A DNA stretch of 40,733 nucleotides from a virus (Duplodnaviria; Heunggongvirae; Uroviricota; Caudoviricetes): IMG/VR virus record IMGVR_UViG_3300045988_138709; one strand, given 5' to 3'. Of the stretch, positions 2,790 to 36,670 are shown in pieces. The translations under genes were made by a program, and so were the position numbers. Every line of letters starts with the position of its first letter. Positions within the stretch are counted from its first letter, which is position 1. A model generated the notes under the pieces. The model was given only the letters and a program-made list of their open reading frames with translations, ran no database searches and was not told where the DNA came from.

Positions 2790-2916
2790 TTTGTTCTCCA
2801 CGTATATGCGCTGCACCGCGCTGAATTCTGGTAAAAAGAATCCCTCACCATCCGGCGATTATTGAGTAAATTACGTTTCCATAAATGCCCCCGCAGGGGC
2901 ATTTGCAGTAATGAAA

Positions 2917-3741
2917 TCAGGCGGTGAAAGTACCAATAAAGGTTTCTACTTTGCTGTCCTTGAATTTCTCAACAAGCAGATCACGAAATTCGTTAGCCAT
3001 TTCTTCCTGCACCGCCTCCAGCTGAATAATGCGCAGAACCAGTACAGGACGATCGCCAGTGATAATACTGAGGCGTAATTTAAACGGACGTTCTTTCAGA
3101 CCTTCAAACGGAACGCATTTAAATTCAAATGCCACTGGCATAATGTCTTTGGTCTTCGCTTCGACAGACTCCATCAGGGAGCGTTTGCCGCTGAAGTCAT
3201 TATCTTCAAAATCAGCGGTCTGGTTTGCTTCAATCGTGATTTTACGGACAGCCGCAGCCGCTTTTGTTGCCTGAATAGCGTCACCATTAGCATCAAAGCC
3301 CACAAGATAGTCGGCCCAGTCTTCAATCCATTCTGCCAGTGACTTCTGGGAGTTACGCTCGCCGTTAACAGACAACAGAGCAGAGAACGGTGCTGTCTTT
3401 TTCAGTTTGAGTGTGGCGGTGTTATCTGCGTGACCTGGTTCATCAATAGTACCCAGGTTAAGCACACTGACGGCACGCATATTATCAGCATCGATAAAGC
3501 AGCGGGTGCCTTCATCTGCAAGATCTTTAGAATAACGGGTAAAGTCATCGATGCTGGCAGTGGAAAGCGCACCACGGAAACGGAAGCGATTTAAATTAAA
3601 TTTTTCCAGATCATGAATGCGGAAATTCTCAGGCAATGCCACAGCATCGGCACCAATCTTACTGATAATTTCATTAACACCCTGAGCAGAAATAAGGGCA
3701 TGGATTTGATTAATTGCGGTTGCGTCTAAGTTCTGAGACAT
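2917..3741 (-). CDS. DUF2303 / YfdQ-like prophage protein
   Basis: 274-aa ORF with GAGGA RBS ahead of ATG; resemblance to CPS-53 YfdQ from recall; function unknown. Confidence 0.7.
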
Positions 3742-3806
3742 AATAAGTCCTCACTATATAAAGATATTCAGTGATGAGATAAATAATCAGTTAATTAAAA
3801 ACGATA

Positions 3807-4169
3807 TTAACGACCTGCTGCGCGGAGTTTTCCGTCAGGTTCACCGGCAAGAGTCAGTAACTGTCCCTGGTCTTCCTGCAGAATAGTCAGGCGACCACCG
3901 CGATTGACATACATCGGCGTTTCGGTGGTGTCTTCTTCGGAAATTTTCCCGCGGTTAGTCGGGCGAACATATGAGAGTTTGTGTTTGATTTTCACTCGGT
4001 TCTCATCAAACGGTTCGATTTCCAGGTTGAGCGAGACCTTACCTTTGGTTTTCGTGTTCATCACACCGGAAGCGACTTCACTGAGAACTGCGCCGATTTT
4101 GGTTTCAAATACGCCGCCGTCCAGCTCCCCGATAAATGCCTGCACATCAGTACTGCGTTCGCTAGCCAT
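3807..4169 (-). CDS. YfdP-like small prophage protein
   Basis: Internal start MASERSTDVQAF... (aa 107 of ORF 3807..4487). The N-terminal extension of the long ORF runs through a hairpin-rich non-coding block and is rejected. Confidence 0.6.
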   Translation of the reverse strand: MASERSTDVQAFIGELDGGVFETKIGAVLSEVASGVMNTKTKGKVSLNLEIEPFDENRVKIKHKLSYVRPTNRGKISEEDTTETPMYVNRGGRLTILQEDQGQLLTLAGEPDGKLRAAGR

Positions 4170-4209
4170 TTTGCTGCTCCTCATCATATCGACCCTGCAA
4201 GGTCGGTTA

Positions 4210-4355
4210 GTTTCTCCACAAAACAGAGAAGAACACCTGCGGTGACTGCCGCCCGGATGGATTGGGTTATGAGCCCGTCGTCCGGTGATGCTCTTCTCTG
4301 TTTTGTAAAAAGGACGGTACCAGCCGGAAGCAAGGGTACAAGCTGGTACCGCCAA
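4210..4355. other. Structured non-coding block: nested long inverted repeats
   Basis: ~17-bp inverted repeat ACAAAACAGAGAAGAAC / GCTCTTCTCTGTTTTGT (about 4219-4235 and 4291-4307) and a perfect 9-bp stem GGTACCAGC/GCTGGTACC (about 4317-4351). Overlapping low-quality ORFs on both strands. Confidence 0.4.
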
Positions 4356-4637
4356 GACTACACACAGCATAAAGTTGTGGTGCCGGGTGCCTCCCGGTGC
4401 CTGGCGAAGGTTGCACACCAGGCGGGTGGGTATCCACAGAAGGTCGACTGTCAGCCTCAACCTTAACCCGCGTGCGCTGAGCCGCATTCACCACAACGCT
4501 AAGGATTCTCTCTGGTTGAAAATACTTAGCTGTTATGTGCCTGCTTTTAGCCACATCAGGCGAGGTGGACCTAGTTATTCCCCAACAACAAGGATTCGGT
4601 TAATCTGGTTATCCCCAACAACGCAAAAGGAAAAGAA

Positions 4638-5072
4638 ATGTCCGGTAATATCTATACGCTGTACAAATCCCACTGTGAAAATGTTGGAAAGTATCGGGGC
4701 ATTGAAATCAGTGGGGTAGTGTCATCAGTCGAAATAAGCAAAGTTGAATCAAGGGCAACATTACTTACTCTTTTGGACCTTGTCTTACATGAGCACCGGA
4801 AGAAATTCGGCACTCCCTATAATCAGTTGAATGGGAAAAAGGCTCTGGTTCACCTTATTCTGATGAAGCATCACTGGATGCCAAAACAGATTAATGAGAT
4901 GAAATTTGATGAACTTCTTCTTTCAATTCAGGATGAACTCACACTTGATAAAATAAGCGTAACCGCCCAGAAATTTTTAGATTATCGAGACTGGAGATCA
5001 CAAATTCATCACTTTGATGATTTTGACGAAAATGAATGGGATCCTAATTTGTCTGCACAATATCTAAAGTAA
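4638..5072 (+). CDS. Hypothetical protein encoded antisense to the early-left operon
   Basis: 144-aa ORF with ATG and AAAGGA RBS; AT-rich; no motif recognised. Confidence 0.5.
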   Translation: MSGNIYTLYKSHCENVGKYRGIEISGVVSSVEISKVESRATLLTLLDLVLHEHRKKFGTPYNQLNGKKALVHLILMKHHWMPKQINEMKFDELLLSIQDELTLDKISVTAQKFLDYRDWRSQIHHFDDFDENEWDPNLSAQYLK

Positions 5073-5250: not shown

Positions 5251-5310
5251 TTCACATCTCCTCAAGTTATCAGTTACTTGTTGATGGGGACCAGATTGTT
5301 AAAGAGCTAA

Positions 5311-5332
5311 GCGTCCTGTAGGGCGCTTTTTT
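5311..5332 (+). terminator. Putative intrinsic terminator (hairpin plus T6)
   Basis: GCGTCC-TGTA-GGGCGC followed by TTTTTT, read by eye. Confidence 0.35.
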
Positions 5333-5409
5333 GTTGCTAACGAATCATCCTGGACTTCATATGCCCCAGGCGGCTACTTCGTGGGCGTCCTGCCTGTTCG
5401 TTGTTTCTC

Positions 5410-5446
5410 TTGGGTACATTACGTATCTCAAAGGTACATTGTCAAG
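5410..5446 (-). promoter_or_regulatory. Putative OL/pL: two GGTACATT repeats and a TTGACA -35 on the minus strand
   Basis: GGTACATT at about 5413-5420 and 5433-5440 (20-bp spacing); minus-strand TTGACA at 5445..5440; -10 is weak. Position just outside the repressor terminator matches a lambdoid pL. Confidence 0.4.
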
Positions 5447-5471
5447 TATAAAAAAACCTGCCGAAGCAGGT
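5447..5471 (-). terminator. Intrinsic terminator downstream of the repressor gene
   Basis: Minus-strand ACCTGC-TTCG-GCAGGT followed by a T7 run, immediately after the repressor stop. Confidence 0.55.
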
Positions 5472-5484
5472 TCATAAACATTGA

Positions 5485-6159
5485 TTAGGCTTTGATTTTG
5501 TATCTTCTTGGTTTTCCTGAGAAAATCACTGTACCAATTATAGAGCAATTACCGTTGATCTTAATGTAAGGCTCAGGCCAGTTTGGGTTTAACGCTTTGA
5601 GATAACGCTGTGTCCCATCTTCTATTAACCTTTTGAAGGTGGTTTCACCTGTATCGTGCATCAATGCAATAACGTCGTCACCGTGGCAGGCAGGTACTTC
5701 AGGATCGACAAAAATCATGTCTCCCGGGCGGTACTCATCAATCATTGAATCACCTATCACCCGCAAGATATAAGTCATTTCCCCACAGGGTACAGGGCAG
5801 GGATACGTTTCTGCTGTGCTCAAATCAACCTCAGAATATCCAACTTCTTTCCATGCTCCGGCCTGTACCCATGATATGACAGGGACTAATGTGATTTGTT
5901 TATTAGTGATTGAAACATCAGGTTTTTTTGTGATGTTCGTTGTCTGGTGTTCTTGATCGAGCCATCCGACAGGTAGGTCGAAACATTTTTCGATGTGTCG
6001 TGCCATGCTGTCACCGATATTTTTAGTAGCACCATCTCCCATAAACCTGCTGGTCTGGGTTGGCTCGCGATCAATCATAGTGGCAAAGGAAGAATTCCCG
6101 CCAACACCATCTCTCAGTTTTCTGGCGTTAGACCGCCGGATGTCATGGATTGTTTTCAT
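5485..6159 (-). CDS. cI: CI-like phage repressor (N-terminal HTH plus C-terminal S24 LexA-like peptidase domain)
   Basis: 224 aa; C-terminal autocleavage-domain motifs (...VISWVQAGAW..., GDSM, ...TFKRL...); divergent from the Cro-like gene; no obvious SD ahead of its ATG. Confidence 0.85.
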   Translation of the reverse strand: MKTIHDIRRSNARKLRDGVGGNSSFATMIDREPTQTSRFMGDGATKNIGDSMARHIEKCFDLPVGWLDQEHQTTNITKKPDVSITNKQITLVPVISWVQAGAWKEVGYSEVDLSTAETYPCPVPCGEMTYILRVIGDSMIDEYRPGDMIFVDPEVPACHGDDVIALMHDTGETTFKRLIEDGTQRYLKALNPNWPEPYIKINGNCSIIGTVIFSGKPRRYKIKA

Positions 6160-6169
6160 AACGAAATTA

Positions 6170-6249
6170 AAACCCTTGTACCGTTAAGGTACAAGTATCT
6201 TGAAGGTTCATTTCAATCATGTAATATGTACACCGGAGGTACATATTGT
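6170..6249. promoter_or_regulatory. OR region: two palindromic operators plus pR (TTGAAG-16-TAATAT)
   Basis: Palindromes CTTGTACC-N5-GGTACAAG (about 6175-6195) and ATATGTAC-N7-GTACATAT (about 6224-6246, overlapping the -10 at 6222-6227); -35 TTGAAG at about 6200-6205. Confidence 0.55.
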
Positions 6250-6450
6250 ATGAAAGCGTATTGGGACTCTTTAACCAAAGAACAGCAGGGCGAGTTGGCC
6301 GGAAAAGTTGGCTCAACACCTGGCTACTTACGGCTGGTTTTCAATGGCTATAAAAAAGCCAGTTTTGTGCTGGCTAAAAAACTTGAGCAATGCACGTCAG
6401 GTGCAATTACGAAATCTGACTTAAGACCGGATATCTATCCGAAAGATTAG
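6250..6450 (+). CDS. cro: Cro-like HTH regulator
   Basis: 66-aa protein from internal ATG (MKAYWDSLTKEQQGELAGKVGSTPGYLRLVFNG...) of ORF 5995..6450; sits directly behind pR/operator, divergent from the repressor. Confidence 0.7.
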   Translation: MKAYWDSLTKEQQGELAGKVGSTPGYLRLVFNGYKKASFVLAKKLEQCTSGAITKSDLRPDIYPKD

Positions 6451-6481
6451 CAGAACACTTTCAATTTTTAACCACAGAACG

Positions 6482-7045
6482 ATGAGGCTAATCGTGGGTA
6501 AGCATCACTGGAAAATAGAAAAACAGCCTGAGTGGTACGTGAAAGCTGTCAGAAAAACTATCGCGGCGTTGCCGGGGGGTTACGCTGAAGCGGCTGACTG
6601 GCTCGATGTAACAGAAAACGCTTTATTCAACCGCCTTCGTGCAGATGGCGATCAGATTTTCCCGCTGGGATGGGCAATGGTTTTACAGCGTGCTGGTGGC
6701 ACTCACTTCATTGCTGATGCTGTGGCGCAGTCTGCAAATGGCGTCTTTGTGTCTCTTCCTGACGTCGAGGATGTGGACAACGCCGATATTAACCAGCGTC
6801 TGCTGGAAGTCATTGAACAGATCGGCAGTTATTCAAAACAGATTCGTTCAGCAATCGAAGACGGTGTAGTGGAACCGCATGAGAAGACAGCAATTAACGA
6901 CGAGCTGTACCTCTCAATTTCGAAGCTGCAGGAGCATGCAGCACTGGTCTACAAAATCTTTTGCGTTTCAGAAAGTAGTGGCGCCCGCGAGTGTGCAGCT
7001 CCGGGCGCCGTGGCGTGTCGTGACTGTGGAGAAACTAACGCATGA
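6482..7045 (+). CDS. Putative CII-like regulatory protein
   Basis: 187-aa ORF in the position of a lambdoid cII; family assignment is a weak recollection (CP76-type CII) without motif proof. Confidence 0.45.
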
Positions 7046-7380
7046 ACAGTTTAACAACACACTACCGTCGCTCGCAACTGATTGCGCTTCCTGTACCGGG
7101 TGGAAAAGCGAAGGTGGAATATTGCTATGCAGTGAATGTACCAGGTGACAGGGAAATTGTAACCCACAGCTTTGCAGAGTGGGCTGTGGGGGATTTCAAC
7201 CGGCAGAAGGAGACAGTCCTTTGCGACAAGTTAACCGCTGGTTCAAAGATCACTACGGAGTGCCCGTCAGAGTCATTCGTTGGGAGCCGGAAACACAACG
7301 GGTTATCTACCTCCGCGAAGGCTATGAGCATGAGTGCTTCAGTCCGCTCGAACAGTTTCGTCGTAAATTCAGGGAAATAG
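7042..7380 (+). CDS. Hypothetical protein; likely frame-disrupted (continues in ORF 7179..7400)
   Basis: ATGA overlap with the upstream gene. The first ~60 aa look protein-like, then a low-complexity Ser-rich tail, while the protein-like sequence continues in the +1-shifted ORF 7179..7400. Confidence 0.4.
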
Positions 7381-7389
7381 AGGTCGGTC

Positions 7390-8331
7390 ATGAGCACTAA
7401 ATTAACCGGCTATGTATGGGATGGTTGCGCAGCGTCAGGCATGAAATTATCCAGCGTGGCAATTATGGCCCGCCTGGCTGATTTCAGTAATGACGAAGGT
7501 GTGTGCTGGCCATCAATTGAAACTATTGCCCGTCAGATTGGCGCGGGGATGAGTACCGTCAGGACGGCTATCGCACGGCTGGAAGCAGAAGGCTGGTTAA
7601 CGCGTAAGGCGCGTCGCCAGGGTAACCGCAATGCGTCGAATGTTTATCAGCTTAACGTTGCGAAGCTTCAGGCAGCGGCATTTTCTCAACTGTCAGATTC
7701 TGACCCGTCAAAATCTGACGCATCAAAATCTGACCCGTCAAAATTTGATGCGTCGAAATCTGGCAAAAAAGCGGGTTTTCACCCGTCAGAATCTGGCGGG
7801 GATCCGTCAGTAAAATCAAAACATGATCCGTTAGATAAAAAACCTTCTCGTCCGGACGCTTCGCAACCGGACACGCAGACGGATGAACAGGATTTTTTAA
7901 CTCGCCATCCTGATGCGGTTGTATTCAGCCCTAAAAAGCGCCAGTGGGGAACGCAGGATGATTTGACCTGCGCACAGTGGCTCTGGAAAAAAATCATTGC
8001 CCTGTACGAGCAGGCCGCCGAATGTGACGGCGAGGTGGTTCGTCCCAAAGAACCGAACTGGACAGCATGGGCAAACGAAATTCGCCTGATGTGTGTGCAG
8101 GATGGTCGTACTCACAAACAAATCTGCGAGATGTACAGCCGCGTCAGCCGCGATCCGTTCTGGTGCCGTAACGTGCTCAGCCCGTCGAAGTTGCGGGAAA
8201 AATGGGATGAGCTTTCCCTGCGCTTATCGCCGTCCGTCAGCACGCACACAGAAAAACGTGAAGACCCGTACTTCAAAGCCAGTTACGACAACGTGGACTA
8301 CAGCCAGATCCCGGCAGGATTCAGGGGGTGA
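7390..8331 (+). CDS. Replication initiator (lambda O-like; N-terminal HTH, repetitive linker, C-terminal domain)
   Basis: 313 aa; N-terminal HTH (...SSVAIMARLADFSNDEGVCWPSIETIARQIG...); iteron array inside the gene encodes an SDPSKSD-type linker; position after cro/cII. Confidence 0.8.
   Translation: MSTKLTGYVWDGCAASGMKLSSVAIMARLADFSNDEGVCWPSIETIARQIGAGMSTVRTAIARLEAEGWLTRKARRQGNRNASNVYQLNVAKLQAAAFSQLSDSDPSKSDASKSDPSKFDASKSGKKAGFHPSESGGDPSVKSKHDPLDKKPSRPDASQPDTQTDEQDFLTRHPDAVVFSPKKRQWGTQDDLTCAQWLWKKIIALYEQAAECDGEVVRPKEPNWTAWANEIRLMCVQDGRTHKQICEMYSRVSRDPFWCRNVLSPSKLREKWDELSLRLSPSVSTHTEKREDPYFKASYDNVDYSQIPAGFRG
7691..7797. repeat. Iteron array (5-6 copies of a ~15-bp unit, consensus CCGTCAAAATCTGAC) - candidate origin
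   Basis: Tandem units at about 7691, 7705, 7720, 7735, 7750 and 7783, followed by an A-rich stretch, all inside the O-like gene as for lambda ori. Confidence 0.65.
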
Positions 8332-8822
8332 TCATGAGTCTTTTGAATGAAGTTCAGAAATTCATTGAAGCCCATCCGGGGTGTACTTCCGGAGACATTG
8401 CGGATGCTTTTGCAGGTTACTCACGGCAGCGCGTTCTGCAGTCAGCAAGCAAGTTACGTCAGAGTGGGCGTGTGGCTCACCGTTGTGAAGGAGATACACG
8501 CAGACATTTCCCACGCCTGACTGAGAGAGCGCAGGAGCCAGAACCACAACCAGTTCGTGAAACCAGACCTGTGCGCAATTTCTATGTCGGCACTAACGAT
8601 CCCCGGGTGATTTTGTGCCTGACCCGCCAGGCGGAAGAACTGGAGTCCAGGGGCTTATACCGTCGTGCTGCAACGGTGTGGATGGCGGCATTCCGTGAAA
8701 GCCACTCCCAGCCAGAACGAAACAATTTTCTGGCGCGTCGTGAGCAGTGTTTACGGAAAAGCAGCAAGCGCGCTGTATCGGGTGATGAGTGGTATCTGTC
8801 AGGGAATTACGTGGGGGCTTAA
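8328..8822 (+). CDS. Hypothetical protein with winged-helix-like N-terminus
   Basis: 164-aa ORF, ATGA-coupled to the O-like gene. No helicase-loader motifs, so not a P/DnaC-like protein. Confidence 0.55.
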   Translation: MIMSLLNEVQKFIEAHPGCTSGDIADAFAGYSRQRVLQSASKLRQSGRVAHRCEGDTRRHFPRLTERAQEPEPQPVRETRPVRNFYVGTNDPRVILCLTRQAEELESRGLYRRAATVWMAAFRESHSQPERNNFLARREQCLRKSSKRAVSGDEWYLSGNYVGA

Positions 8823-9475
8823 TGAGTAATAAATATTGCCAGGAGCTGGTGGAACTGCGGAACAAACCAGCCCATGAACTGAAGGAAGTGGGTGATCAGT
8901 GGCGCACGCCGGACAACATTTTCTGGGGAATTAATACCCTGTTTGGCCCGTTTGTTCTGGATCTGTTCACTGACGGTGATAACGCCAAATGTGCTGCGTA
9001 TTACACGGCGGAAGACAACGCGCTGGCGCATGACTGGTCAGAACGTCTTGCGGAGCTTAAAGGGGCTGCCTTTGGTAATCCCCCATACAGCCGCGCCAGT
9101 CAGCATGAGGGGCAATACATCACCGGCATGCGTTACATCATGAAGCATGCCAGTGCCATGCGTGATAAAGGCGGGCGCTATGTTTTCCTGATCAAAGCTG
9201 CCACCAGCGAAGTGTGGTGGCCGGAAGATGCAGACCATATTGCTTTTATTCGCGGGCGTATTGGTTTTGAACTGCCTGTCTGGTTTATCCCGAAAGACGA
9301 GAAGCAGGTGCCGACAGGAGCGTTCTTCGCTGGTGCTATTGCTGTTTTCGATAAGACCTGGAAGGGACCGGCAATCAGCTACATCGGGCGCGATGAACTT
9401 GAGACATGTGGTGAGGCGTTTCTGGCGCAGGTTCGCCAGCAGGCGGAAAAACTGATCAGGGAGATGGCGGCATGA
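8822..9475 (+). CDS. Phage DNA N6-adenine methyltransferase (Dam-like)
   Basis: Motif ...FGNPPYS... (NPPY catalytic motif); start moved to ATG (MSNKYCQELV...), overlapping the upstream stop. Confidence 0.8.
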   Translation: MSNKYCQELVELRNKPAHELKEVGDQWRTPDNIFWGINTLFGPFVLDLFTDGDNAKCAAYYTAEDNALAHDWSERLAELKGAAFGNPPYSRASQHEGQYITGMRYIMKHASAMRDKGGRYVFLIKAATSEVWWPEDADHIAFIRGRIGFELPVWFIPKDEKQVPTGAFFAGAIAVFDKTWKGPAISYIGRDELETCGEAFLAQVRQQAEKLIREMAA

Positions 9476-9798
9476 CGACATTAACTCAATGCCAGCAGCA
9501 GGTGCTGGATATGCTGATTTCTTATCAGAAAGAACGTGGCTTCCCGCCAACCAATCAGGAGGTGGCTACCATGCTGGGATACCGTTCAGTGAATGCAGCG
9601 GTGGAGCATCTTCGCGCACTGGAGAAAAAAGGCGTCATCACGATAAAGCGTGGCGTGGCACGGGGGATAACGCTTCATACCGCGGTGAAGGACGACGACA
9701 GCGAGGCGGTCGGGATTATCCGCTCACTGCTTGCCGGTGAGGAAAACGCCAGGCTGCGTGCAGCCCACTGGTTACATGAGAGGGGCCTGAAAGTATGA
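9472..9798 (+). CDS. LexA N-terminal DNA-binding-domain protein (no peptidase domain)
   Basis: 108 aa; winged-HTH resembling the LexA DNA-binding domain (...NQEVATMLGYRSVNAAVEHLRALEKKGVITI...); ATGA-coupled. Confidence 0.55.
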   Translation: MTTLTQCQQQVLDMLISYQKERGFPPTNQEVATMLGYRSVNAAVEHLRALEKKGVITIKRGVARGITLHTAVKDDDSEAVGIIRSLLAGEENARLRAAHWLHERGLKV

Positions 9799-10184
9799 AG
9801 CTGATCCTGCCTTTTCCGCCCAGCGTGAACACGTACTGGCGACACCCCAACAAAGGGGCGTTTGCTGGTAAGAGCCTGATAAGCTCGGCGGGGCGAAAAT
9901 TCCAGAGCGCGGCGTGCGCAGCAATAGTTGAGCAGTTACGTCGTCTGCCGAAACCAACGTCGGCACCTGCTTCAGTGGAGATCGTGTTGTTTCCTCCGGA
10001 TAACAGGATCCGCGATCTGGACAACTATAACAAGGCGCTGTTTGACGCCCTGACCCACGCGGGGGTGTGGGAAGACGACAGTCAGGTGAAAAGAATGCTG
10101 GTGGAGTGGGGACCGGTTATCCCGGAAGGGAAGGTCGAGATCACTATCAGTAAGTACGAGAAAACGGCGGGTGCAGCCGCCTGA
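9795..10184 (+). CDS. rusA: RusA Holliday-junction resolvase
   Basis: 129 aa; MKLILPFPPSVNTYWR...RDLDNYNKALFDALTHAGVWEDDSQV matches RusA catalytic-core pattern. Confidence 0.9.
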   Translation: MKLILPFPPSVNTYWRHPNKGAFAGKSLISSAGRKFQSAACAAIVEQLRRLPKPTSAPASVEIVLFPPDNRIRDLDNYNKALFDALTHAGVWEDDSQVKRMLVEWGPVIPEGKVEITISKYEKTAGAAA

Positions 10185-10203
10185 TTAAGAGGAGAAACGA
10201 AGT

Positions 10204-11001
10204 ATGAATAATCTGATGGTTATTGATGGTATTGAAGTTCGTCGTGATGCTTATGGGCGTTACAGCCTGAACGATCTGCACAGGGCTGCTGGTTCTCTGG
10301 ATAAGCATAAGCCTGCATTCTGGCTCCGCAATGAGCAAACTGAGCGTTTAATAAGCGAGTTGCAGATTTGCAACTCGGTCAATATAGAGCCAGTTAACGT
10401 TATTCGTGGCGGAAATAACCAGGGGACGTATGTCTGCAAAGAACTGGTGTATGCCTATGCAATGTGGATCAGCCCGTCATTCCATCTGAAGGTGATCCGT
10501 ACTTTCGACATGGTAACCAGCGCACCGGAAAAATTATCCGGACAGGCTGCTGACAAGATGCAGGCTGGTGTGATTCTGCTGGACTTTATGCGCCGGGAAT
10601 TAAACCTGTCTAACTCTTCAGTGCTTGGTGCCTGCCAGAAACTCCAGGAGGCTGTTGGCTTACCGAATCTGGCACCGCGCTATGCCATTGATGCTCCTGC
10701 TGATGCACACGATGGCTCAAGTCGCCCCACGCTGTCTCTGAGTGCACTGCTGAGGCAGTATGGTATCCGCCTGACGGCTAATCAGGCATATCACCAGATG
10801 GTGAAGCTGGGGATCGTTGAACAACGCGAACGATACAGCCGTACCGCGATTAACAACATCAAAAAATTCTGGTCGCTGACGGCGAAAGGCTGCATGTTCG
10901 GCAAGAACATCACCAGTCCTGCAAATCCGCGCGAGACGCAGCCGCATTTCTTCGAATCCCGATTCCCTGAGCTGTTAAAACTGCTCGATACCGTTCATTG
11001 A
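10204..11001 (+). CDS. KilA-N domain protein
   Basis: N-terminus MVIDGIEVRRDAYGRYSLNDLHRAAG...KPAFWLRNEQTERLI typical of the KilA-N DNA-binding domain; C-terminal domain unassigned. Confidence 0.75.
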   Translation: MNNLMVIDGIEVRRDAYGRYSLNDLHRAAGSLDKHKPAFWLRNEQTERLISELQICNSVNIEPVNVIRGGNNQGTYVCKELVYAYAMWISPSFHLKVIRTFDMVTSAPEKLSGQAADKMQAGVILLDFMRRELNLSNSSVLGACQKLQEAVGLPNLAPRYAIDAPADAHDGSSRPTLSLSALLRQYGIRLTANQAYHQMVKLGIVEQRERYSRTAINNIKKFWSLTAKGCMFGKNITSPANPRETQPHFFESRFPELLKLLDTVH

Positions 11002-11002
11002 G

Positions 11003-11998
11003 GTGACCGTGAGAGCACTACTGACCCCTGAAATTGCCCCGCGTATGGGGATTGTATTGTTCAGGCCAGGTTCAGAGCTGATGCCCCTGTTTATGCAGGG
11101 GCGTGTCCTGCTGGAGCCTGAGCCGGAACGTTATTCATCTTTCGCCAGTGGTGCCGTTCCGGCGGCATCACAACCGCTGGCGGATGATCCTGCCGTTCGG
11201 GCCGTGTTCCGCAATGAGGCAGTGATCCGTCGTGCTGGTGGCGTGGAATGTCTTGAAAGCTGGTTACTTCGTGAAAAGGGCTGTCAGTGGCCTCATTCCG
11301 ACTGGCACAGCGAGAACATGACCACAATGCGGCACGCTCCGGGAGCAATTCGTCTGTGCTGGCACTGCGATAACCAGCTGCGTGACCAGTTCACGGAACG
11401 GCTGGAATCAATGGCAACGGATAACTGTGCCCGCTGGGTGTTGTCTGTTGTGCGTCGGGATCTCGGTTTTGATGATAGTCACGTTGTGACAATGCCGGAA
11501 CTGTGCTGGTGGCTGATTCGTAATGACCTGGCGGATGCCTTACCGGAAAGTGCAGCCCGTAAGGCACTGAGATTACCAAAGCCTATTGTGCCGTCTGTCA
11601 CCCGGGAAAGTGACCTTGTGCCTTCGGTTCCTGCCACCAGCATCATCCAGGATAAGGCGAAAAAGGTGCTGGCGCTGAAAGTGGATCCGGAGTCGCCGGA
11701 GTCTTTTATGTTACGCCCAAAACGTCGCCGCTGGGTTAATGAAAAGTACACGCGCTGGGTTAAGACACAGCCGTGTGCATGTTGTGGAAAGCCCGCTGAT
11801 GATCCCCACCACCTGATAGGTTACGGTCAGGGTGGAATGGGAACAAAAGCGCATGACCTTTTTGTGTTGCCTTTGTGCAGAAAGCATCACGACGAGCTGC
11901 ATGCGGATACCGTGGCATTTGAAGAAAAGTATGGCTCCCAGCTGGAGCTGATATTTCGTTTTATCGATCGCGCGCTGGCAATTGGCGTGCTGGCCTGA
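11003..11998 (+). CDS. DUF968-like protein with C-terminal Cys/His (HNH-like) cluster
   Basis: 331 aa; C-terminal ...CACCGKPADDPHHL...CRKHHDELH...; common in lambdoid nin regions (recall). Confidence 0.65.
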   Translation: MTVRALLTPEIAPRMGIVLFRPGSELMPLFMQGRVLLEPEPERYSSFASGAVPAASQPLADDPAVRAVFRNEAVIRRAGGVECLESWLLREKGCQWPHSDWHSENMTTMRHAPGAIRLCWHCDNQLRDQFTERLESMATDNCARWVLSVVRRDLGFDDSHVVTMPELCWWLIRNDLADALPESAARKALRLPKPIVPSVTRESDLVPSVPATSIIQDKAKKVLALKVDPESPESFMLRPKRRRWVNEKYTRWVKTQPCACCGKPADDPHHLIGYGQGGMGTKAHDLFVLPLCRKHHDELHADTVAFEEKYGSQLELIFRFIDRALAIGVLA

Positions 11999-12013
11999 TT
12001 TTTTCGGAGAAAG

Positions 12014-12382
12014 GTGATGCGTGATATTCAGATGGTTCTTGAGCGTTGGGGGGCATGGGCGGCGAGTGACAGTTCAGGAGTAGACTATTCGCCTATAGCT
12101 GCTGGGTTTAAGGGACTTCTTCCCTATACAAGCAAAACACGTCAGGCTTGTTCAGATAGTGATGCATTAATTATTGAAGGTTGTCTTGCTCGTCTAAAGC
12201 AAAAAAGGCCAGACGAACATTCGCTTCTTGTTGCCCATTACCTATACGGTATCTCTAAAAGAAAGCTCGCCAAAGCTCGTAAAAAGGATGAGAAACTAAT
12301 ACGCATTGAGATACAGATGGCTGAGGGGTTTATTGAAGGCTGTCTCTCAATGCTTGATCTTTGTTTGGAAATGGACCAATAG
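12014..12382 (+). CDS. Q: Late antiterminator Q (phage-82-type Q family)
   Basis: 122 aa; MRDIQMVLERWGAWAA...IAAGFKGL...CLARLK... strongly resembles 82-type Q proteins (recall). Confidence 0.85.
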   Translation: MMRDIQMVLERWGAWAASDSSGVDYSPIAAGFKGLLPYTSKTRQACSDSDALIIEGCLARLKQKRPDEHSLLVAHYLYGISKRKLAKARKKDEKLIRIEIQMAEGFIEGCLSMLDLCLEMDQ

Positions 12383-12405
12383 ACTACAAGAATAGCAACT
12401 GCCGC

Positions 12406-12828
12406 TCAGCTTTGCGGATCGGCAGTTTCTGATGGTGTAATGTTACGCGCAGATGTTTCAAGTATAGATTCCCTTCCGATTGATACCAAAATTTCGATTG
12501 TTCTTGCTTTAGCCTGCATCAATGTTGATTTTATTTCAGGACTTAAGTGGTCAGATCGTAACTGCTTCTCAATCTCAGCCAAATCACGCTTGCATTTTGC
12601 TCTTTTGGCTGCGTCTTCTGGAGATTCGAAACCATGTCTCGAAATGAACCAATTCATGACGTAAGTTAAAGTTGCCGCAACACCCGGTACTAATGCGTAG
12701 GCTACAGTTCGCCACACGCTATTAGGGTCGGTTAAAATCGCGCTAACAAGAACACTTAAAATTGCTCCCCAACCACCAGTTGAAAGGGTAGCTTTTCCTG
12801 TGCTTAGACCTTTAGTTTGAGAATTCAT
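12406..12828 (-). CDS. Cassette gene 3: predicted membrane protein (two N-terminal TM helices plus charged helical tail)
   Basis: 140 aa; hydrophobic segments GGWGAILSVLVSAIL and VAYALVPGVAATLTYVMNWFI; ATG start; ATGA-coupled to cassette gene 2. Confidence 0.6.
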   Translation of the reverse strand: MNSQTKGLSTGKATLSTGGWGAILSVLVSAILTDPNSVWRTVAYALVPGVAATLTYVMNWFISRHGFESPEDAAKRAKCKRDLAEIEKQLRSDHLSPEIKSTLMQAKARTIEILVSIGRESILETSARNITPSETADPQS

Positions 12829-13094
12829 TTTCGTTTTGAATTCTCCGCAATTGCCTCATCAATGAGGGTTGTTAGCATTTTTCCCTTTTTACTTGGAACT
12901 TTTATTACTAGCGTTTTGGTCACTCCGGAATCTTCATCGTGATATCGGAATTCGAAGACTTTTGTAGGGAATAGTCGACGCCAAAGCAAGGCTGACGCTG
13001 AATAGCAAAAACGACTAAAGGCAGGGATGATCATTATCACCCCTATCCAGAAGATCAGTTGTGCTATCTGCATGTTTAGTGTCACTTTTGTCAA
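12825..13094 (-). CDS. Cassette gene 2: small single-pass membrane protein
   Basis: 89-aa ORF (possible TTG start; in-frame ATG 7 codons in); TM segment IAQLIFWIGVIMIIPAF; stop overlaps gene 3 start. Confidence 0.5.
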   Translation of the reverse strand: MTKVTLNMQIAQLIFWIGVIMIIPAFSRFCYSASALLWRRLFPTKVFEFRYHDEDSGVTKTLVIKVPSKKGKMLTTLIDEAIAENSKRK

Positions 13095-13960
13095 GCCTCA
13101 GCAGGGCGTTTTCGTTTTACTTTGGTTATAGCATACTTGGTTGTGGCATTTCGCGCAGTGAAAGTTTTTATAGTTTTTAGCTCAACAACAAACAAATCTT
13201 CTTTTGTAAAACTGATGATTCCGTTTTGAACTTGGTGTATAAACAACTGATCTTCAAAGGTAACAGCATGCTCTTCGCCTAAATAATCGATTCTCCAACC
13301 CTTTGTACCCTCGAAGTTGATCTGTACGAATCTAACATTGACTTCTTCTACAGACTCTTCTTTTTCAAGTAGTGTGCCTCTAGGCAGCGGTTTGATCTCT
13401 TCGGTTTCACTTCCTTCAAGACGAACGACTTCTTCGCCTTCATCATTCAGCACCTTAAATACTGCTCCTTGTTTGCCGTCTAATGGTGCACGAACTACAT
13501 TCACAAGGGCATCACGGACTTCTGGATCTGTTACTAACTTAGCCACTGAGTCATGGCAAACAATTTCTTCCCCTTCAAGCTCAAGAACAGATTCTTCTGT
13601 TCCTGCCCGTTTTGTTACCGAAATTACTTTCTTGCTGCCCAGTTGGCGGATTAGTGATAATGCTGGAGCTCCAATAGTAGCCCCGGCTATCCCTGTTAGG
13701 CCAATCACTTTTGCTACGTCGACGGCATGAGGAACAAGCTCCATCATCGTATAGGATACGCCGAGTGATCCCGCTTCAGCTGGATTAGTAACCATTAACT
13801 TAACGGTTTGTTGGCCGTCATTAAGTCTTTTATCAGCTGCTGATATTAAATCTGCCATCGAACCTATGGAAATGCTTAATGTTTTGGCATCAATTTTATG
13901 CTGTGCTAATTCATTATCCTCTGCATCGTAGAAGATCTGAAAAGAAGTTGTTTTAGTCAC
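13091..13960 (-). CDS. Cassette gene 1: hypothetical 289-aa protein (acidic linker, one hydrophobic segment)
   Basis: Long ORF with probable GTG start; no catalytic motif recognised; hydrophobic stretch VAKVIGLTGIAGATIGAPALSLI; stop overlaps gene 2 start. Confidence 0.6.
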   Translation of the reverse strand: MTKTTSFQIFYDAEDNELAQHKIDAKTLSISIGSMADLISAADKRLNDGQQTVKLMVTNPAEAGSLGVSYTMMELVPHAVDVAKVIGLTGIAGATIGAPALSLIRQLGSKKVISVTKRAGTEESVLELEGEEIVCHDSVAKLVTDPEVRDALVNVVRAPLDGKQGAVFKVLNDEGEEVVRLEGSETEEIKPLPRGTLLEKEESVEEVNVRFVQINFEGTKGWRIDYLGEEHAVTFEDQLFIHQVQNGIISFTKEDLFVVELKTIKTFTARNATTKYAITKVKRKRPAEA

Positions 13961-14082
13961 TCTTTGCTCGCTATGTCTTGATTTTTTTCCACAAAATACC
14001 TTTTTTTGGTGTAAAAAACATTATCGCGGTCCGCAAAAATTGCGTTACTGTGTTAAGAGTGATTACTTCGTCACACAGCTTA

Positions 14083-14108
14083 AACCCGCCGTCGAGCGGG
14101 TTTTTTTA
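14083..14108 (+). terminator. Intrinsic terminator (tR'-like) downstream of Q
   Basis: AACCCGC-CGTCGA-GCGGGTT followed by a T7 run. Confidence 0.5.
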
Positions 14109-14574: not shown

Positions 14575-15627
14575 ATGAAAAATACTGTAAAAATAAACAG
14601 TGTTGATTTAATCAACGCTGATTGCCTGCATTTTATTCAGTCCCTGCCTGATGACTCCATTGATCTGATTGTTACCGATCCGCCGTACTTCAAAGTGAAG
14701 CCCAACGGCTGGGACAATCAGTGGAAAGGGGACGAAGATTACCTGAAGTGGCTGGACCACTGTCTGGCCCAGTTCTGGCGGGTACTGAAACCAGCCGGAA
14801 GCCTTTACCTGTTCTGTGGACATCGCCTGGCATCTGATATCGAGATCATGATGCGTGAACGTTTCAACGTTCTTAACCATATCATCTGGGCGAAGCCGTC
14901 CGGACGATGGAACGGGTGTAATAAAGAAAGCCTGCGGGCATATTTCCCCGCTACAGAGCGCGTTCTGTTTGCTGAACATTACCAGGGGCCATATCGCGGC
15001 AAAAGTGACGATTATGCGGCAAAAGAAAGGGAACTCAAACAGCACATAATGGCACCGCTGATTTCGTATTTCAGGGATGCTCGTGCCGAACTGGGTATAA
15101 CGGCAAAACAGATTGCCGAAGCCACTGGTAAGAAAAATATGGTTTCCCACTGGTTTGGTGCCAGTCAGTGGCAGTTGCCGAATGAGGCTGACTACCGGAA
15201 GTTGCAGGCACTGTTTTCCCGTATAGCGGCAGATAAATTTCAGGAACAACAACTGGAACAACCACACCACCAGCTGGTGGCATCTTATGATTCACTGAAT
15301 CGCAAATATTCTGAATTGCTGGATGAGTTTAAAACTCTCCGGCGCTATTTCTCCGTATCAGTTTCCGTGCCTTATACCGACGTCTGGACGCATAAACCCG
15401 TTCAGTTCTACCCGGGTAAACATCCGTGTGAGAAGCCTGCGGATATGCTCCGGCAAATAATCAGTGCCAGTAGTCGACAAGGCGATCTGGTTGCTGATTT
15501 CTTTATGGGATCCGGTTCCACAATAAAAGCGGCAATGGCGCTGGGGCGTCGGGCGTTAGGTGTTGAACTTGAGTCAGAGCGGTTTAATCAGACGGTGAAA
15601 GAGGTAAGTGAACTGGTGGGGAAATAA
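14575..15627 (+). CDS. DNA methyltransferase (N6-adenine/N4-cytosine class; DPPY then FxGSGS order)
   Basis: 350 aa; N-terminal ...LIVTDPPYF... and C-terminal ...DFFMGSGST...; no adjacent restriction endonuclease seen. Confidence 0.85.
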   Translation: MKNTVKINSVDLINADCLHFIQSLPDDSIDLIVTDPPYFKVKPNGWDNQWKGDEDYLKWLDHCLAQFWRVLKPAGSLYLFCGHRLASDIEIMMRERFNVLNHIIWAKPSGRWNGCNKESLRAYFPATERVLFAEHYQGPYRGKSDDYAAKERELKQHIMAPLISYFRDARAELGITAKQIAEATGKKNMVSHWFGASQWQLPNEADYRKLQALFSRIAADKFQEQQLEQPHHQLVASYDSLNRKYSELLDEFKTLRRYFSVSVSVPYTDVWTHKPVQFYPGKHPCEKPADMLRQIISASSRQGDLVADFFMGSGSTIKAAMALGRRALGVELESERFNQTVKEVSELVGK

Positions 15628-15634
15628 TTCTGGT

Positions 15635-15660
15635 GGCCACGTTGCGTGGCCTTTTTATTT
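15635..15660 (+). terminator. Intrinsic terminator between methyltransferase and holin
   Basis: GGCCACG-TTG-CGTGGCC followed by TTTTTATTT. Confidence 0.55.
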
Positions 15661-15703
15661 CCAACACAGCACCCGCAAATATCGCGAGGTGAGAGATGAC
15701 GAA

Positions 15704-16039
15704 ATGCCTCATAACCCAAATACCTGGCCGGACTGGCTGGAGTTGTTTCAGAGCTGGTGGCGTGGAGATACGCCGCTGGGCGCAGTGATTATGTCGATTG
15801 TTATGGCTGGTTTGCGTATTGCCTATTTTGGTGGTGGTGGCGGCTGGAAACGAAAAACACTCGAAATTTTGCTCTGTGGCGCTCTGACGCTGACCTTTGC
15901 ATCCGCTCTTGAGTATGTCGGATGGCCTAAATCGCTTTCTGTTGCCATTGGTGGTGGGGTGGGGCTGATCGGGGTCGATGCAATTCGTGGGGCTGCAATG
16001 CGAGTAATCGGTAATAAGTTTGGTAGTTCTAAGGAGTAA
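15704..16039 (+). CDS. Holin (three predicted TM segments)
   Basis: Start at ATG with GAGGTGAG RBS, downstream of the terminator; hydrophobic segments LGAVIMSIVMAGLRIAYF, TLEILLCGALTLTFASALEYV and LSVAIGGGVGLIGV; directly precedes the endolysin. Confidence 0.7.
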   Translation: MPHNPNTWPDWLELFQSWWRGDTPLGAVIMSIVMAGLRIAYFGGGGGWKRKTLEILLCGALTLTFASALEYVGWPKSLSVAIGGGVGLIGVDAIRGAAMRVIGNKFGSSKE

Positions 16040-35151: not shown

Positions 35152-35595
35152 ATGAACTCAGTATTCTTTTCACCCGGAAGTAAAAGTTTTTATCTACAAG
35201 AATTGTTTCCAGAATATGAGGATGCGGGAACGCTTCCAGATGATGTTATTGAAATTACCCGAGAAACATATGAGCAATTTCTTGGGCTGCATCCAGAAGG
35301 GAAAGAAATTGGCGCTGACAGTTCAGGACGGCCAATATGGATTAATTCCCCACCGCCTTCAAAAGAGGATGAGGTGTTGATGGCTGAAATGAAAAAAATA
35401 TCTTTGGTTTCAGAAGCCAATACCTACATCAATACCCATCAGTGGCCTGGCAAAGCTGCTATTGGTCGTCTGAAAGGTAACGAGCTGGAGCAATATAATT
35501 TATGGCTGGATTATCTGGACGCACTGGAACTGGTTGATCCCTCCAGTGCTCCAGATATTGAATGGCCTACGCCTCCGGCAGTTCAGGCCAGATGA
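35152..35595 (+). CDS. Tail fibre assembly protein (expressed orientation)
   Basis: 147 aa; conserved C-terminal ...LDYLDALELVDPSSAPDIEWPTPP... also present in the opposite-strand paralogue. Confidence 0.8.
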   Translation: MNSVFFSPGSKSFYLQELFPEYEDAGTLPDDVIEITRETYEQFLGLHPEGKEIGADSSGRPIWINSPPPSKEDEVLMAEMKKISLVSEANTYINTHQWPGKAAIGRLKGNELEQYNLWLDYLDALELVDPSSAPDIEWPTPPAVQAR

Positions 35596-36169
35596 CATTC
35601 GGCGCGGTGCTGGTATCTGTTGCCGTCACCGCGTCAATGTAATCCAGCACAGCGTTAAGCTGGGTTGTTTCTGCCTGCGTCAGTTTCCGTCCGGCCTGTA
35701 ATTTCAGCTGAATCAGACTGATGGAAGCCATTGCAGCATCAATCAGTGACTGGCGCTGTGCTTCTGCCGCGTCTACTGCGGCGCTATGCTGTGCCTCAGT
35801 ATCGGTTACCCATTTCTCACCATCCCATTTATCGTATGGAGATAAAGGGGCGATAGTGGTTGTATTTTCAGGGTAATCACCCGGAGCTTTGATTTCTTTT
35901 GATTCTCCTGTTTCTGTGCTAAAGACGATTTCACCACGATGGTCTGGCACATATTCCCATGAGTTAAAATCTGCAGAACGGCAAATTGCATACCCAGTTT
36001 TGTATGAGCCAGGAGCATCTAAACAGGAACATGCCGGAATGCCGACACCCACAGCAAGATATTCAGTTGATGTGAAAATATATTCCCGTGTTTCACCATC
36101 ATAGTTATAAACCGTAATATTTCCTGCCTGGGTGGCGATAAATTCGTTATTTAATACAGCGTAATCCAT
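35567..36169 (-). CDS. Alternative tail fibre assembly protein (silent orientation)
   Basis: 200 aa; C-terminal ...LDYIDAVTATDTSTAPNVIWPELP... paralogous to the + strand chaperone. Confidence 0.75.
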   Translation of the reverse strand: MDYAVLNNEFIATQAGNITVYNYDGETREYIFTSTEYLAVGVGIPACSCLDAPGSYKTGYAICRSADFNSWEYVPDHRGEIVFSTETGESKEIKAPGDYPENTTTIAPLSPYDKWDGEKWVTDTEAQHSAAVDAAEAQRQSLIDAAMASISLIQLKLQAGRKLTQAETTQLNAVLDYIDAVTATDTSTAPNVIWPELPEA

Positions 36170-36670
36170 TATGCAGCCCTCATGATATACGCAAATGCCA
36201 GGTTCCGTGGTCTGGTTTCTTTAATTAAAGAGGAGGCATCAGGTGAACTCACTGATTCAGCACCATTTCTTCCACCAGTGGTATAAGTAAAAACTCTTTC
36301 ACTGTTAGACCAGTAATCCACACCAACTGTTTTTGCTGATGAAAAAATGGTTTCATCAGATATAACCTGTTCTATTCCATACGGGATATTAGTAACTGAC
36401 CCCACTTTTGTAGGTATTCCATGATTATGAGAAATTACTGCATGCTCTTGATTCGTTAATAAAGTACGACCGCTATCCACTCCACGCCCGTCATCCCAGC
36501 CACGAATAAACTCACCACGTAAATCAGGCAATTTATTTGTCGGATAAGCCTTTGCCAGTTCCGGGTATTCTTCAGCAGAAAAAGCGGCACCGTTGCATTT
36601 CAGCCAGCCTGTTGGCGGAGTGGCGGAAGGCCACGGAACAGGCACGCCAACGGGTAATGCCGAACCTTCT
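36169..36670 (-). CDS. Alternative tail fibre variable C-terminal segment (promoterless; expressed only after inversion)
   Basis: Reading frame passes in-frame through the right crossover site (...INVGLGEGS...), matching ...ENLGLGE... at the left site; ORF 36169..36720 trimmed to the site. Confidence 0.65.

Follow-up and report, generated by a model that had tools for sequence, protein, structure and literature searches.

Lambda RexA and RexB, proteins of 279 and 144 aa, are the described pair to which a preliminary description likened the locus studied here. For its largest protein, the closest described groups are PDC-S42, NCBIfam NF053583 (LAPAL) and PHROG 3243. The PDC families were picked by their embedding in BREX, DISARM, RM-I and Hma systems, and have the status of candidates (bioRxiv 10.1101/2024.01.29.577857). 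Elsewhere, four of eight other tested PDC/HEC candidates were protective. No paper on PDC-S42, on the LAPAL motif or under the RefSeq accessions came up in the literature, and no PDC-S42 entry was found in the supplements of the PADLOC embedding paper.

The window, i.e., the whole 40,733-nucleotide stretch of Caudoviricetes DNA analysed (IMG/VR record IMGVR_UViG_3300045988_138709), carries three genes, here called A, B and C, between an antiterminator Q gene and the late operon. The best explanation for them is an accessory (moron) cassette that is autonomous and is carried by a lambdoid prophage of the QuuD/82 type.

Cassette layout and coding status

The features of the cassette and its ends are as follows.

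13091-13960, minus strand: gene A, 289 aa, GTG start (ORF list); multi-domain, with a central Gly/Ala-rich hydrophobic loop at residues ~79-105
12825-13094 (TTG start) or 12825-13085 (GTG start), minus strand: gene B, 86-89 aa (ORF list); N-terminal TM helix, conserved FxRFxYAxSxLLWRxxFPT motif and short basic tail
12406-12828, minus strand: gene C, 140 aa, ATG start (ORF list); two-helix TM hairpin, NWxISRHGxESPxxA motif and helical hairpin
13961-14030, minus strand: leader and upstream region of A, noncoding, conserved
12385-12439, no strand assigned: imperfect inverted repeat, spanning the 23-nt gap between Q and C and the 3' end of C

The ORF list agrees with the preliminary description as to three minus-strand genes at these coordinates, and their orientation is indeed opposite to that of the flanking genes, which occupy the plus strand at 5995-12382 and from 14231 onward. 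Overlaps of 4 nt had been claimed at both junctions. The claim stands for B and C, where the stop of one and the start of the other overlap as ATGA, an arrangement that the start-codon comparison found kept in nearly all relatives, but not for A and B, where such an overlap exists only with the TTG start of B at 13094. According to the same comparison, the GTG at 13085, which yields an 86-aa protein, is conserved in the closest relatives. This GTG is more likely to be the start of B than the TTG, at which the ORF begins mechanically; the protein collection lacks the 89-aa form that starts at TTG. Across relatives, the A-B spacing ranges from a 22-nt overlap to a 16-nt gap.

Comparison of the window with a related locus, L024, yielded pN/pS values of 0.047/0.71 for gene A, 0.088/0.56 for gene B and 0.105/0.76 for gene C. 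These values indicate that A, B and C are genuine genes, all under purifying selection, with B and C evolving faster than A. Gene B is left unannotated by PGAP, and other gene callers miss it too. Because current annotation misses B, automated defence finders see one of the three genes.

By eye, the block had seemed more AT-rich than its flanks, and the measured composition bears this out: the cassette has 42.1% GC against 50.6% for the whole window, which places it at the 5.6th percentile among equal-sized windows, and its GC3 is 0.32-0.40 against 0.51-0.56 in the neighbouring genes. Low GC is also found in Q (44%) and in the intergenic region (40%). In its antisense orientation, low GC and GC3, translational coupling and constrained leader, the cassette has a foreign, self-contained look.

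Transcription signals

The leader of A is 69-83% identical to that of relatives with near-saturated synonymous sites. On the minus strand upstream of A, a promoter scan found no convincing or consensus sigma-70-like site, and phylogenetic footprinting of this region pinned down no promoter. The cassette is probably expressed in the lysogen, as its orientation had been taken to imply. At the other end, the arms of the inverted repeat (12385-12410 and 12414-12439) are 73% complementary, and the repeat may stop transcription in both directions, that of Q and that of A-B-C, which converge here; the scan scored no canonical T-tract terminator in this stretch.

The slot and its other cargo

The slot is bounded by the following plus-strand features.

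12014-12382, plus strand: antiterminator Q, QuuD/82 type (PF06530, E 3e-53), convergent with the cassette; early-operon side
14019-14103, plus strand: putative pR'/qut block and tR'-like terminator; late-operon side of the slot
14575-15627, plus strand: methyltransferase (PF01555)
15608-16039, plus strand: holin (PF05106)

The holin is followed by more lysis-cassette ORFs, one of which has only a sub-threshold DUF2570 match. On the late-operon side, a tR'-like intrinsic terminator lies at 14082-14103 on the plus strand, and the putative pR'/qut block next to it, CACTCTTAACAC...TGCGGACCGC, is invariant in the E. coli, Klebsiella, Serratia and Edwardsiella loci. This block is taken as the late promoter and Q-utilisation region (pR'/qut). 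The sequence from 14013/14083 onward is common to many lambdoid phages, and one record labels it "terminator". The location had been called a classic moron slot, the one where Stx phages carry stx. It is a cargo site, but the position is not that of stx, since the cassette lies upstream of the late promoter, as nmpC does in DLP12.

Slot content was sampled in seven related prophages, six with the same DUF968-Q module and the seventh being K-12 DLP12, in which a QuuD-type Q belongs to a different early module. Six of the slots hold antisense cargo, different in each, and one, in a sibling prophage, is empty. In DLP12 the cargo is nmpC. The cargos of the E. coli siblings comprise a KAP NTPase (PDC-S20, E 1e-176; PifA, E 6e-18), an SDH/ClpP-like protease, a 339-aa protein of no assigned function, a pair of genes encoding 313 and 149 aa, and a different three-gene set. 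In short, the slot from Q to the late promoter is a site of antisense cargo that varies between prophages. When these other cargos were compared with A, B and C as possible relatives, they proved unrelated. The unknown slot cargos of three loci (L066, L069 and L151) are example candidates for further systems.

Conservation of the three genes as a unit

The trio recurs as a unit: the order A-B-C is kept in 66/66 related loci, in which the identity of A lies between 37% and 100%. When the search is started from C homologs, A and B always precede C, and neither B nor C occurs without A in any sampled locus. The trio lies in the Q-pR' slot in 64 loci, with Q adjoining C in 64/66. In two others (L014 and L015) it adjoins an integrase, and in Hafnia its neighbours are a CRISPR array and tail-fibre genes. 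Its presence in three prophage or island contexts shows that the trio moves as a unit. The extra genes beside it in L014 were compared with A, B and C and are not related to them.

Given the adjacency to Q in 64/66 loci, functional coupling to Q was considered and rejected as a requirement: the identity of Q and that of A-B-C vary independently across loci, and the trio is found without Q as well. The Q allele was counted in 627 E. coli genomes and the cassette in 31; natural lysogens include strains 120899 and EC21Z-078.

Gene A belongs to a family of defence candidates

The three products had been described as belonging to no recognisable family. This holds for B and C, which yielded nothing above noise in Pfam, PADLOC, PHROGs and NCBIfam, but not for A. 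The PADLOC model of PDC-S42, PDLC05015, matches A with E 8e-33 (8.2e-33) over residues 4-287 of 289 and profile positions 3-292 of 302, with weak matches only for PDLC05016/17. NF053583 is matched with 202 bits (cutoff 60) over model positions 1-292 of 292, and PHROG 3243 with 3e-60. Aligned end to end with the LAPAL branch, A obtains an hhalign probability of 100% and E 2e-40, although the literal LAPAL motif is missing from the window protein, whose residues 27-36 read TLSISIGSMA against DLAPALLAIS in distant members. Because of its matches to PDC-S42, NF053583 and PHROG 3243, A is an already flagged defence candidate, by way of PDC-S42, and all the families it matches are uncharacterised. 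As far as could be found, what is new here is B, C and the three-gene layout only.

A profile search gathered 1871 representatives of the A family, which share a size of ~290 aa and the same architecture and range from Proteobacteria to CPR bacteria. The AF2 model of A has a pLDDT of 83 and a pTM of 0.74. No solved relative was found in the PDB by fold or by sequence, and Foldseek against BFVD returned uncharacterised viral proteins only. Among 50,697 deposited phage genomes, tblastn with A found no match, and megablast with the cassette matched only the tR' end. No recognisable enzymatic motif had been seen in the products, and the analysis supports this. In A, a single borderline Gly/Ala-rich hydrophobic segment (residues ~79-105, Kyte-Doolittle 1.64) forms a loop that is conserved family-wide, and no signal-peptide-like sequence was apparent by eye at the N-terminus.

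The near neighbours of distant A relatives include type IIG RM genes, retron RTs, ZorD, DpdE, SoFic and AriA, and about a dozen of 147 such neighbours match strong defence models, this being a raw count with no background. Many LAPAL-branch genes lie between housekeeping genes, without defence neighbours. The distant LAPAL genes are solitary, and B- or C-like partners, which were looked for beside them, were not found. A can thus probably act without B and C as its sole effector, and, with many of these solitary genes amid housekeeping genes, the family does not depend on a division of labour into sensor and pore. In NCBIfam, the A family is named "putative phage structural protein". We see no support for this role in A, which lies outside the late operon and has no virion fold match, and whose distant relatives are found among housekeeping or defence genes.

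Genes B and C encode small membrane proteins

Two membrane proteins and a third product with one hydrophobic segment had been recognised by the preliminary description, and both the Kyte-Doolittle scan and AF2 agree. The scan gives B a single strong TM segment (Kyte-Doolittle 2.0). In C, the Kyte-Doolittle scan places the hairpin and AF2 predicts helices at residues 11-31, 38-65, 70-90 and 97-116 (pLDDT 65, a model too weak for use in a fold search); according to the alignments, the NWxISRHGxESPxxA motif is juxtamembrane and highly conserved. The TM segments of B and C are followed by charged residues. Given these residues and the lack of a signal peptide in A, the soluble parts of all three proteins, the helical tail of C included, are predicted to be cytoplasmic.

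The C family comprises 102 clusters, found in Enterobacterales only and none with a Pfam domain, and B and C accompany no branch of A other than the enterobacterial one. One UniRef entry calls a C homolog "Holin". B and C have no holin match in Pfam or PHROGs, and the trio lies in antisense orientation ahead of tR'.

Proposed function and alternative explanations

The leading reading remains that of a defence or exclusion candidate, as first proposed from the sequence: we consider the chances about even that the cassette, which the lysogen probably expresses, acts at the inner membrane to exclude superinfecting phage or abort its infection. This reading is favoured because the trio is a mobile unit with a foreign look, sits in a cargo hotspot, includes a member of the PDC-S42 family and has a suitable predicted topology. 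We infer that A, B and C would associate physically as a three-protein complex at the inner membrane, on its cytoplasmic side. In such a complex, A would be the conserved core, made of several small alpha/beta and beta domains with the Gly/Ala-rich hydrophobic loop, and B and C, whose translation is coupled, its small partners in the inner membrane. An infection cue inside the cell would be sensed by A, upon which the complex would act on the membrane, either as abortive infection through permeabilisation or depolarisation or as a block of DNA entry. Its role would be to protect the lysogen against other phages.

The trio could instead be a lysogenic-conversion or host-fitness cassette, e.g., a membrane complex altering envelope physiology, stress tolerance or colonisation, which we regard as unlikely. 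The DLP12 slot does hold a porin rather than a defence gene, and nmpC/lc porins change the cell surface; B and C are membrane proteins matching no family, and the many LAPAL-branch genes amid housekeeping genes also fit. Yet the A family was found through embedding inside defence systems, defence genes neighbour A in several distant genomes and a CRISPR array lies by the Hafnia trio, and a PifA-like protein is among the other slot cargos. Surface conversion in particular fits poorly with the topology, which would leave almost nothing exposed to the periplasm or the surface. Less probable than this is that two functions share one operon, with A self-sufficient, as PADLOC models it, and B-C a separate inner-membrane superinfection-exclusion module. 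The solitary state of the distant A family, the faster evolution of B and C, and the conserved ATGA coupling of B and C beside a variable A-B spacing are in line with two functions. However, B and C never occur without A in the sampled loci, which cover three genomic contexts, and the C family does not extend beyond the taxa of the A subfamily, both of which favour functional dependence.

A service of the trio to the lytic cycle, be it as a lysis-timing (holin/antiholin-like) or virion set or through convergent transcription that damps Q, is more doubtful again. The database names "putative phage structural protein" and "Holin" speak for it, as does the layout of C, two TM segments and a charged tail as in small holins. 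The stop of C is 23 nt from that of Q, with the imperfect hairpin between them, so read-through would be antisense to Q. Nevertheless, the cassette is antisense, upstream of the late promoter and outside the lysis cassette, and the phage has its own holin and further lysis-cassette ORFs. Pfam and PHROGs yielded no holin or virion match, no structural-protein fold was matched, and the 50,697 phage genomes hold no homolog. Siblings without the trio or with unrelated cargo indicate it is dispensable, and some copies of the trio do not lie beside Q, with distant family members in non-phage contexts. Least probable of the alternatives, in our judgement, is that the trio makes the prophage more stable as an addiction or toxin-antitoxin-like module without phage sensing, with A restraining a membrane toxin (B and/or C) or with these roles swapped. 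The close coupling of the genes, their invariable order and the presence of small membrane proteins would suit such a module, but A is the most conserved of the three and is alone in most lineages, unlike an antitoxin or a toxin in need of a partner, and no match to a TA family was found in Pfam, PADLOC, PHROGs or NCBIfam. Abi systems of TA-like type would fall under the leading reading anyway.

A broader version of the defence reading is more tentative, and we put it somewhat below even: that the trio is a previously uncharacterised three-component membrane-acting anti-phage system, in which the enterobacterial prophage branch of the A family would have recruited two dedicated inner-membrane partners, and that the Q-pR' gap is a general antisense defence hotspot. 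If the trio is protective, it would give the large PDC-S42/LAPAL family, so far uncharacterised, its first function and a model that is tractable in E. coli, with a role to proteins that annotation pipelines now label as putatively structural, and it would exemplify a single-gene system acquiring membrane partners. The compact slot, from the Q stop to the late-promoter block, would then be a place to find more exclusion genes.

Comparison with known systems

P22 SieA, HK97 gp15 and T4 Imm are small inner-membrane proteins of moron-type loci in prophages or phages, and by analogy they illustrate a possible mode for B and C. They are, however, single proteins without a 290-aa A-like partner, and no homology of the trio to exclusion proteins of this type was detected in PHROGs or Pfam.

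The preliminary description had seen RexAB-like logic in the cassette. The likeness to lambda RexA/RexB is one of analogy: both are prophage-encoded, with proteins of similar sizes and the logic of a soluble protein with a small inner-membrane partner, and no Pfam, PADLOC, PHROG, PDB-sequence or fold match to RexA or RexB was obtained. RexAB consists of two genes in the immunity region, whereas the trio consists of three genes in the Q-pR' location; RexB has four TM helices and C has two. In contrast with RexAB, A relatives are solitary in most lineages, without B and C.

The nmpC/lc cargo of DLP12/PA-2 and the PifA-like KAP NTPase (PDC-S20) occupy the slot of the trio, likewise in antisense orientation and between identical boundaries. 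The proteins are nonetheless unrelated to A, B and C: nmpC codes for a porin of the outer membrane, and the KAP NTPase is a soluble P-loop enzyme.

In terms of homology, the closest systems are those of the A family. The window protein is an end-to-end homolog of NF053583/PHROG 3243, but with TLSISIGSMA in place of DLAPALLA. It matches the PDC-S42 model over its full length, with the same ~290-aa size and architecture, and no PADLOC model matches B or C. While PDC-S42 is embedded in BREX, DISARM or RM systems, the window locus occupies a prophage slot and is not embedded; and while PDC-S42 is modelled as a single gene, A is here followed by B and C in 66/66 loci.

Gene content and coding status

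Three minus-strand genes, A, B and C, occupy positions 12406-13960 of the window, at the coordinates given for them in the preliminary description. The neighbouring genes, both those in 5995-12382 and those that begin at 14231, are without exception on the plus strand, which confirms that the cassette lies antisense between the antiterminator gene Q and the terminator.

Table. The cassette and its flanks (positions in the window)
12014-12382, plus strand: Q, QuuD/82 type (PF06530 match, E 3e-53)
12385-12439: imperfect inverted repeat (26-nt arms, 73% complementary, 3-nt spacer)
12406-12828, minus strand: gene C, 140 aa
12825-13094, minus strand: gene B, 89 aa from TTG at 13094, or 86 aa from GTG at 13085
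13091-13960, minus strand: gene A, 289 aa
14082-14103, plus strand: intrinsic terminator, tR'-like
15608-16039, plus strand: holin

After the terminator come, in order, a 64-aa ORF, an N6/N4 methyltransferase, the holin and further lysis-cassette ORFs. At the start of the window, a tRNA-Thr (CGT) is directly followed by a minus-strand tyrosine integrase (115-1368), which is probably the prophage attachment end, and much further on a plus-strand serine recombinase (Resolvase and HTH_7, 36711-37301) adjoins minus-strand ORFs at 35567-36720 that follow plus-strand putative tail-fibre genes; the layout of 35152-37301 resembles a Gin/Pin-type invertible tail-fibre segment.

Against a relative with 92% identity in the A protein, pN is 0.047, 0.088 and 0.105 in A, B and C, and the corresponding pS values are 0.71, 0.56 and 0.76; synonymous sites are thus near saturation and non-synonymous change is low in all three. 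Judged by this comparison, A, B and C are genuine genes, and B is conserved under purifying selection. The PGAP (RefSeq) annotation of identical loci calls A and C and omits B. In a collection of 15 billion proteins, exact A is found on 515 contigs and exact C on at least 1000, and the 89-aa TTG-start form of B has no entry. Given that the GTG at 13085 is kept in the closest relatives and the internal ATG of the window's B is not, B probably starts at this GTG and has 86 aa. Hence, of the two 4-nt stop/start overlaps previously described, the B/C overlap (ATGA) stands and is kept almost everywhere, whereas the A/B overlap hinges on the TTG start. The AT-richness noticed by eye is borne out: the cassette has a GC content of 42.1% where the window as a whole has 50.6%, which puts it at the 5.6th percentile among stretches of its size, and its GC3 is 0.32-0.40, compared with 0.51-0.56 for the DUF968 and methylase genes on either side.

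Protein families and topology

The preliminary description recognised no family for A. This does not hold: A matches the PADLOC phage defence candidate PDC-S42 over its full length (E 8e-33), NCBIfam NF053583, "LAPAL motif-containing putative phage structural protein" (202 bits, cutoff 60), and PHROG 3243, a family of no known function. PDC families are candidates, picked out because their genes lie inside BREX, DISARM, type I RM and Hma systems; of eight PDC/HEC candidates other than PDC-S42 that were assayed in a later study, four were protective. Two names used in databases, "Holin" and "putative phage structural protein", found no support in any check that was run.

A profile search yielded 1871 representative clusters of the A family, nearly all of 280-310 aa. 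A distant branch, homologous end to end, carries a literal DLAPALLA where the window's A has TLSISIGSMA. The whole family shares a central hydrophobic loop rich in Gly and Ala, with a basic helix after it, and 95% of distant representatives are most hydrophobic at about residues 60-100. In the window's A this is a borderline Gly/Ala-rich stretch only (about residues 79-105), in keeping with the single hydrophobic segment first noted.

The other two products are membrane proteins, as had been proposed: B has a single strongly hydrophobic N-terminal helix, and C a two-helix hydrophobic hairpin. Neither has a family match in any library searched. The C family comprises 102 clusters, all from Enterobacterales and all of 94-146 aa (full-length about 129-146 aa), none with a Pfam domain. 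Since A has no signal peptide and the TM segments of B and of C are followed by positive charges, the soluble portions of the three proteins are read as cytoplasmic, with almost nothing predicted in the periplasm.

Downstream of the LAPAL gene in 80 loci of the distant branch, small membrane genes do not recur as a conserved pair; B and C are thus a lineage-specific addition to a protein that is solitary elsewhere. The neighbours of these distant genes are heterogeneous and include housekeeping genes; a minority have strong defence matches (type IIG RM, retron RTs, ZorD, DpdE, SoFic, AriA), in a raw tally with no background control. In six Burkholderia loci with a solitary LAPAL gene (L089, L092, L093, L095, L097 and L119, about 2900-4900, plus strand), a 530-640-aa ORF without Pfam match precedes it on the same strand; this ORF may encode a partner confined to that lineage, or it may be spurious and due to high GC.

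Recurrence as a unit

Homologs of A at 100% to 37% identity were gathered from E. coli, Citrobacter, Klebsiella, Enterobacter, Serratia, Edwardsiella and metagenomes, giving 66 loci. A, B and C are in the same order on one strand in all 66, and when the search starts from C homologs (Hafnia, Rahnella, one metagenome), A and B are again upstream; the trio thus does recur as a unit. A QuuD/82-type Q converges on C within 15-45 nt in 64 loci. The identities of Q and A-B-C are uncoupled (A 91% and Q 65% in locus L033; A 52% and Q 75% in L006), the 37%-identical relatives adjoin an integrase, and the Hafnia copy adjoins a CRISPR-DR4 array and tail-fibre genes. These three findings speak against a functional dependence of the trio on Q, and the trio thus acts like a mobile cassette.

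The array of the Hafnia paralvei locus (GCA_054482955.1; L153, 4533-5054) lies about 630 nt downstream of C, between the trio and tail-fibre-assembly genes, and is made up of at least nine repeats of 28 nt that recur every 60 nt (Rfam CRISPR-DR4 match); no Q gene adjoins this trio. [quoted passage not shown] These extra proteins have no family match; the trio may here be part of a more extensive island of membrane-protein genes, or the system itself may be longer in these loci.

The site between Q and the putative late promoter

The region 13961-14081 comprises the A leader and, adjoining it, a noncoding block conserved across genera, which reads, along the minus strand, ...CACTCTTAACAC...TGCGGACCGC..., then the terminator; CACTCTTAACAC is an invariant string and TGCGGACCGC a palindrome. 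Sequence from about 14013/14083 onward is common to many lambdoid phages. In our reading, the block combines the late promoter/Q-utilisation region with tR', although promoter hexamers for pR' or the A-B-C operon could not be assigned within 13961-14081. The 65-nt A leader is 69-83% conserved against relatives with saturated synonymous sites, and the conservation of leader and block greatly exceeds that of synonymous sites in the flanking genes; the regulatory DNA of the late unit and that of the A-B-C unit may overlap or be shared. At the other end, the inverted repeat spans the 23-nt convergent stop-codon gap between Q and C and enters the 3' end of C, and it may stop transcription in both directions or be a place where the transcription of cassette and Q interferes.

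The stx genes of Stx phages lie downstream of tR'. On the late-promoter reading the cassette sits between Q and pR', so the earlier equation of this slot with the site of stx fails. Its description as a cargo site fares better. Of 5426 complete E. coli genomes, 627 have this Q allele and only 31 the cassette. Sibling prophages with the same KilA-N/DUF968/Q module hold five different cargos and one empty slot, and K-12 DLP12, where a QuuD-type Q lies inside a different early module, holds nmpC.

Table. Contents of the slot in related loci
L066, 3895-4914, antisense: 339-aa protein of no known function
L067, 4070-5065, antisense: SDH/ClpP-like protease
L068, 3897-5228, antisense: KAP NTPase (PDC-S20, E 1e-176; PifA, E 6e-18)
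L069, 3904-5316, antisense: 313- and 149-aa pair
L151, 3865-6023, antisense: three-gene set (365, 140 and 211 aa), unrelated to A-B-C
L152: empty
L150 (K-12 DLP12), 5284-7372: IS5 plus nmpC porin

None of the cargos compared shows kinship to A, B or C. Because siblings hold differing antisense cargos or none, the slot is a site of variable antisense cargo, with exclusion-type genes among its contents, and several uncharacterised cargos could be further exclusion genes. A description of this site as a defence hotspot was not found in the literature.

Proposed function

We consider an anti-phage role for the trio about an even chance. The case is weakened by the lack of any catalytic or known sensor motif in A, by its absence from all 50,697 deposited phage genomes, by the lack of a reported phenotype for its family in the literature, and by the lack of a recognisable promoter upstream of A. 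In the mechanism we propose, A, B and C would form a complex at the inner face of the inner membrane, which would sense an intracellular event and in response either permeabilise that membrane, so that the infection aborts, or hinder the entry of DNA there. The location would fit soluble parts read as cytoplasmic and a nearly free periplasm. That A senses while its membrane partners execute or anchor is a more doubtful proposal.

The main alternative, a role in lysogenic conversion unrelated to defence, is unlikely, and conversion of the cell surface fits the predicted topology poorly. Two independent systems in one operon seem less likely still. A role in the phage's own cycle, be it lysis timing, a virion protein or damping of Q by convergent transcription, we hold improbable: the strand and position of the cassette speak against it, as do its dispensability among sibling prophages and the phage's own holin and lysis-cassette ORFs. 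Nor was any holin or virion likeness found in A, B or C, the kind of homology that the preliminary description had set against an exclusion role. An addiction module is the least probable reading. The trio is a good and cheap experimental lead rather than a categorical surprise.

Comparison with known systems

The RexAB likeness proposed earlier survives only as an analogy of logic and size; no homology of sequence or fold was found, and gene number, TM count and location all differ. For the slot, the closest real relative is nmpC of DLP12. For the genes it is PDC-S42/LAPAL, to whose HMM A belongs, although PDC-S42 is a single-gene architecture and A is here followed by B and C. We regard the three-gene variant as new, within a candidate family that had already been flagged and is uncharacterised.
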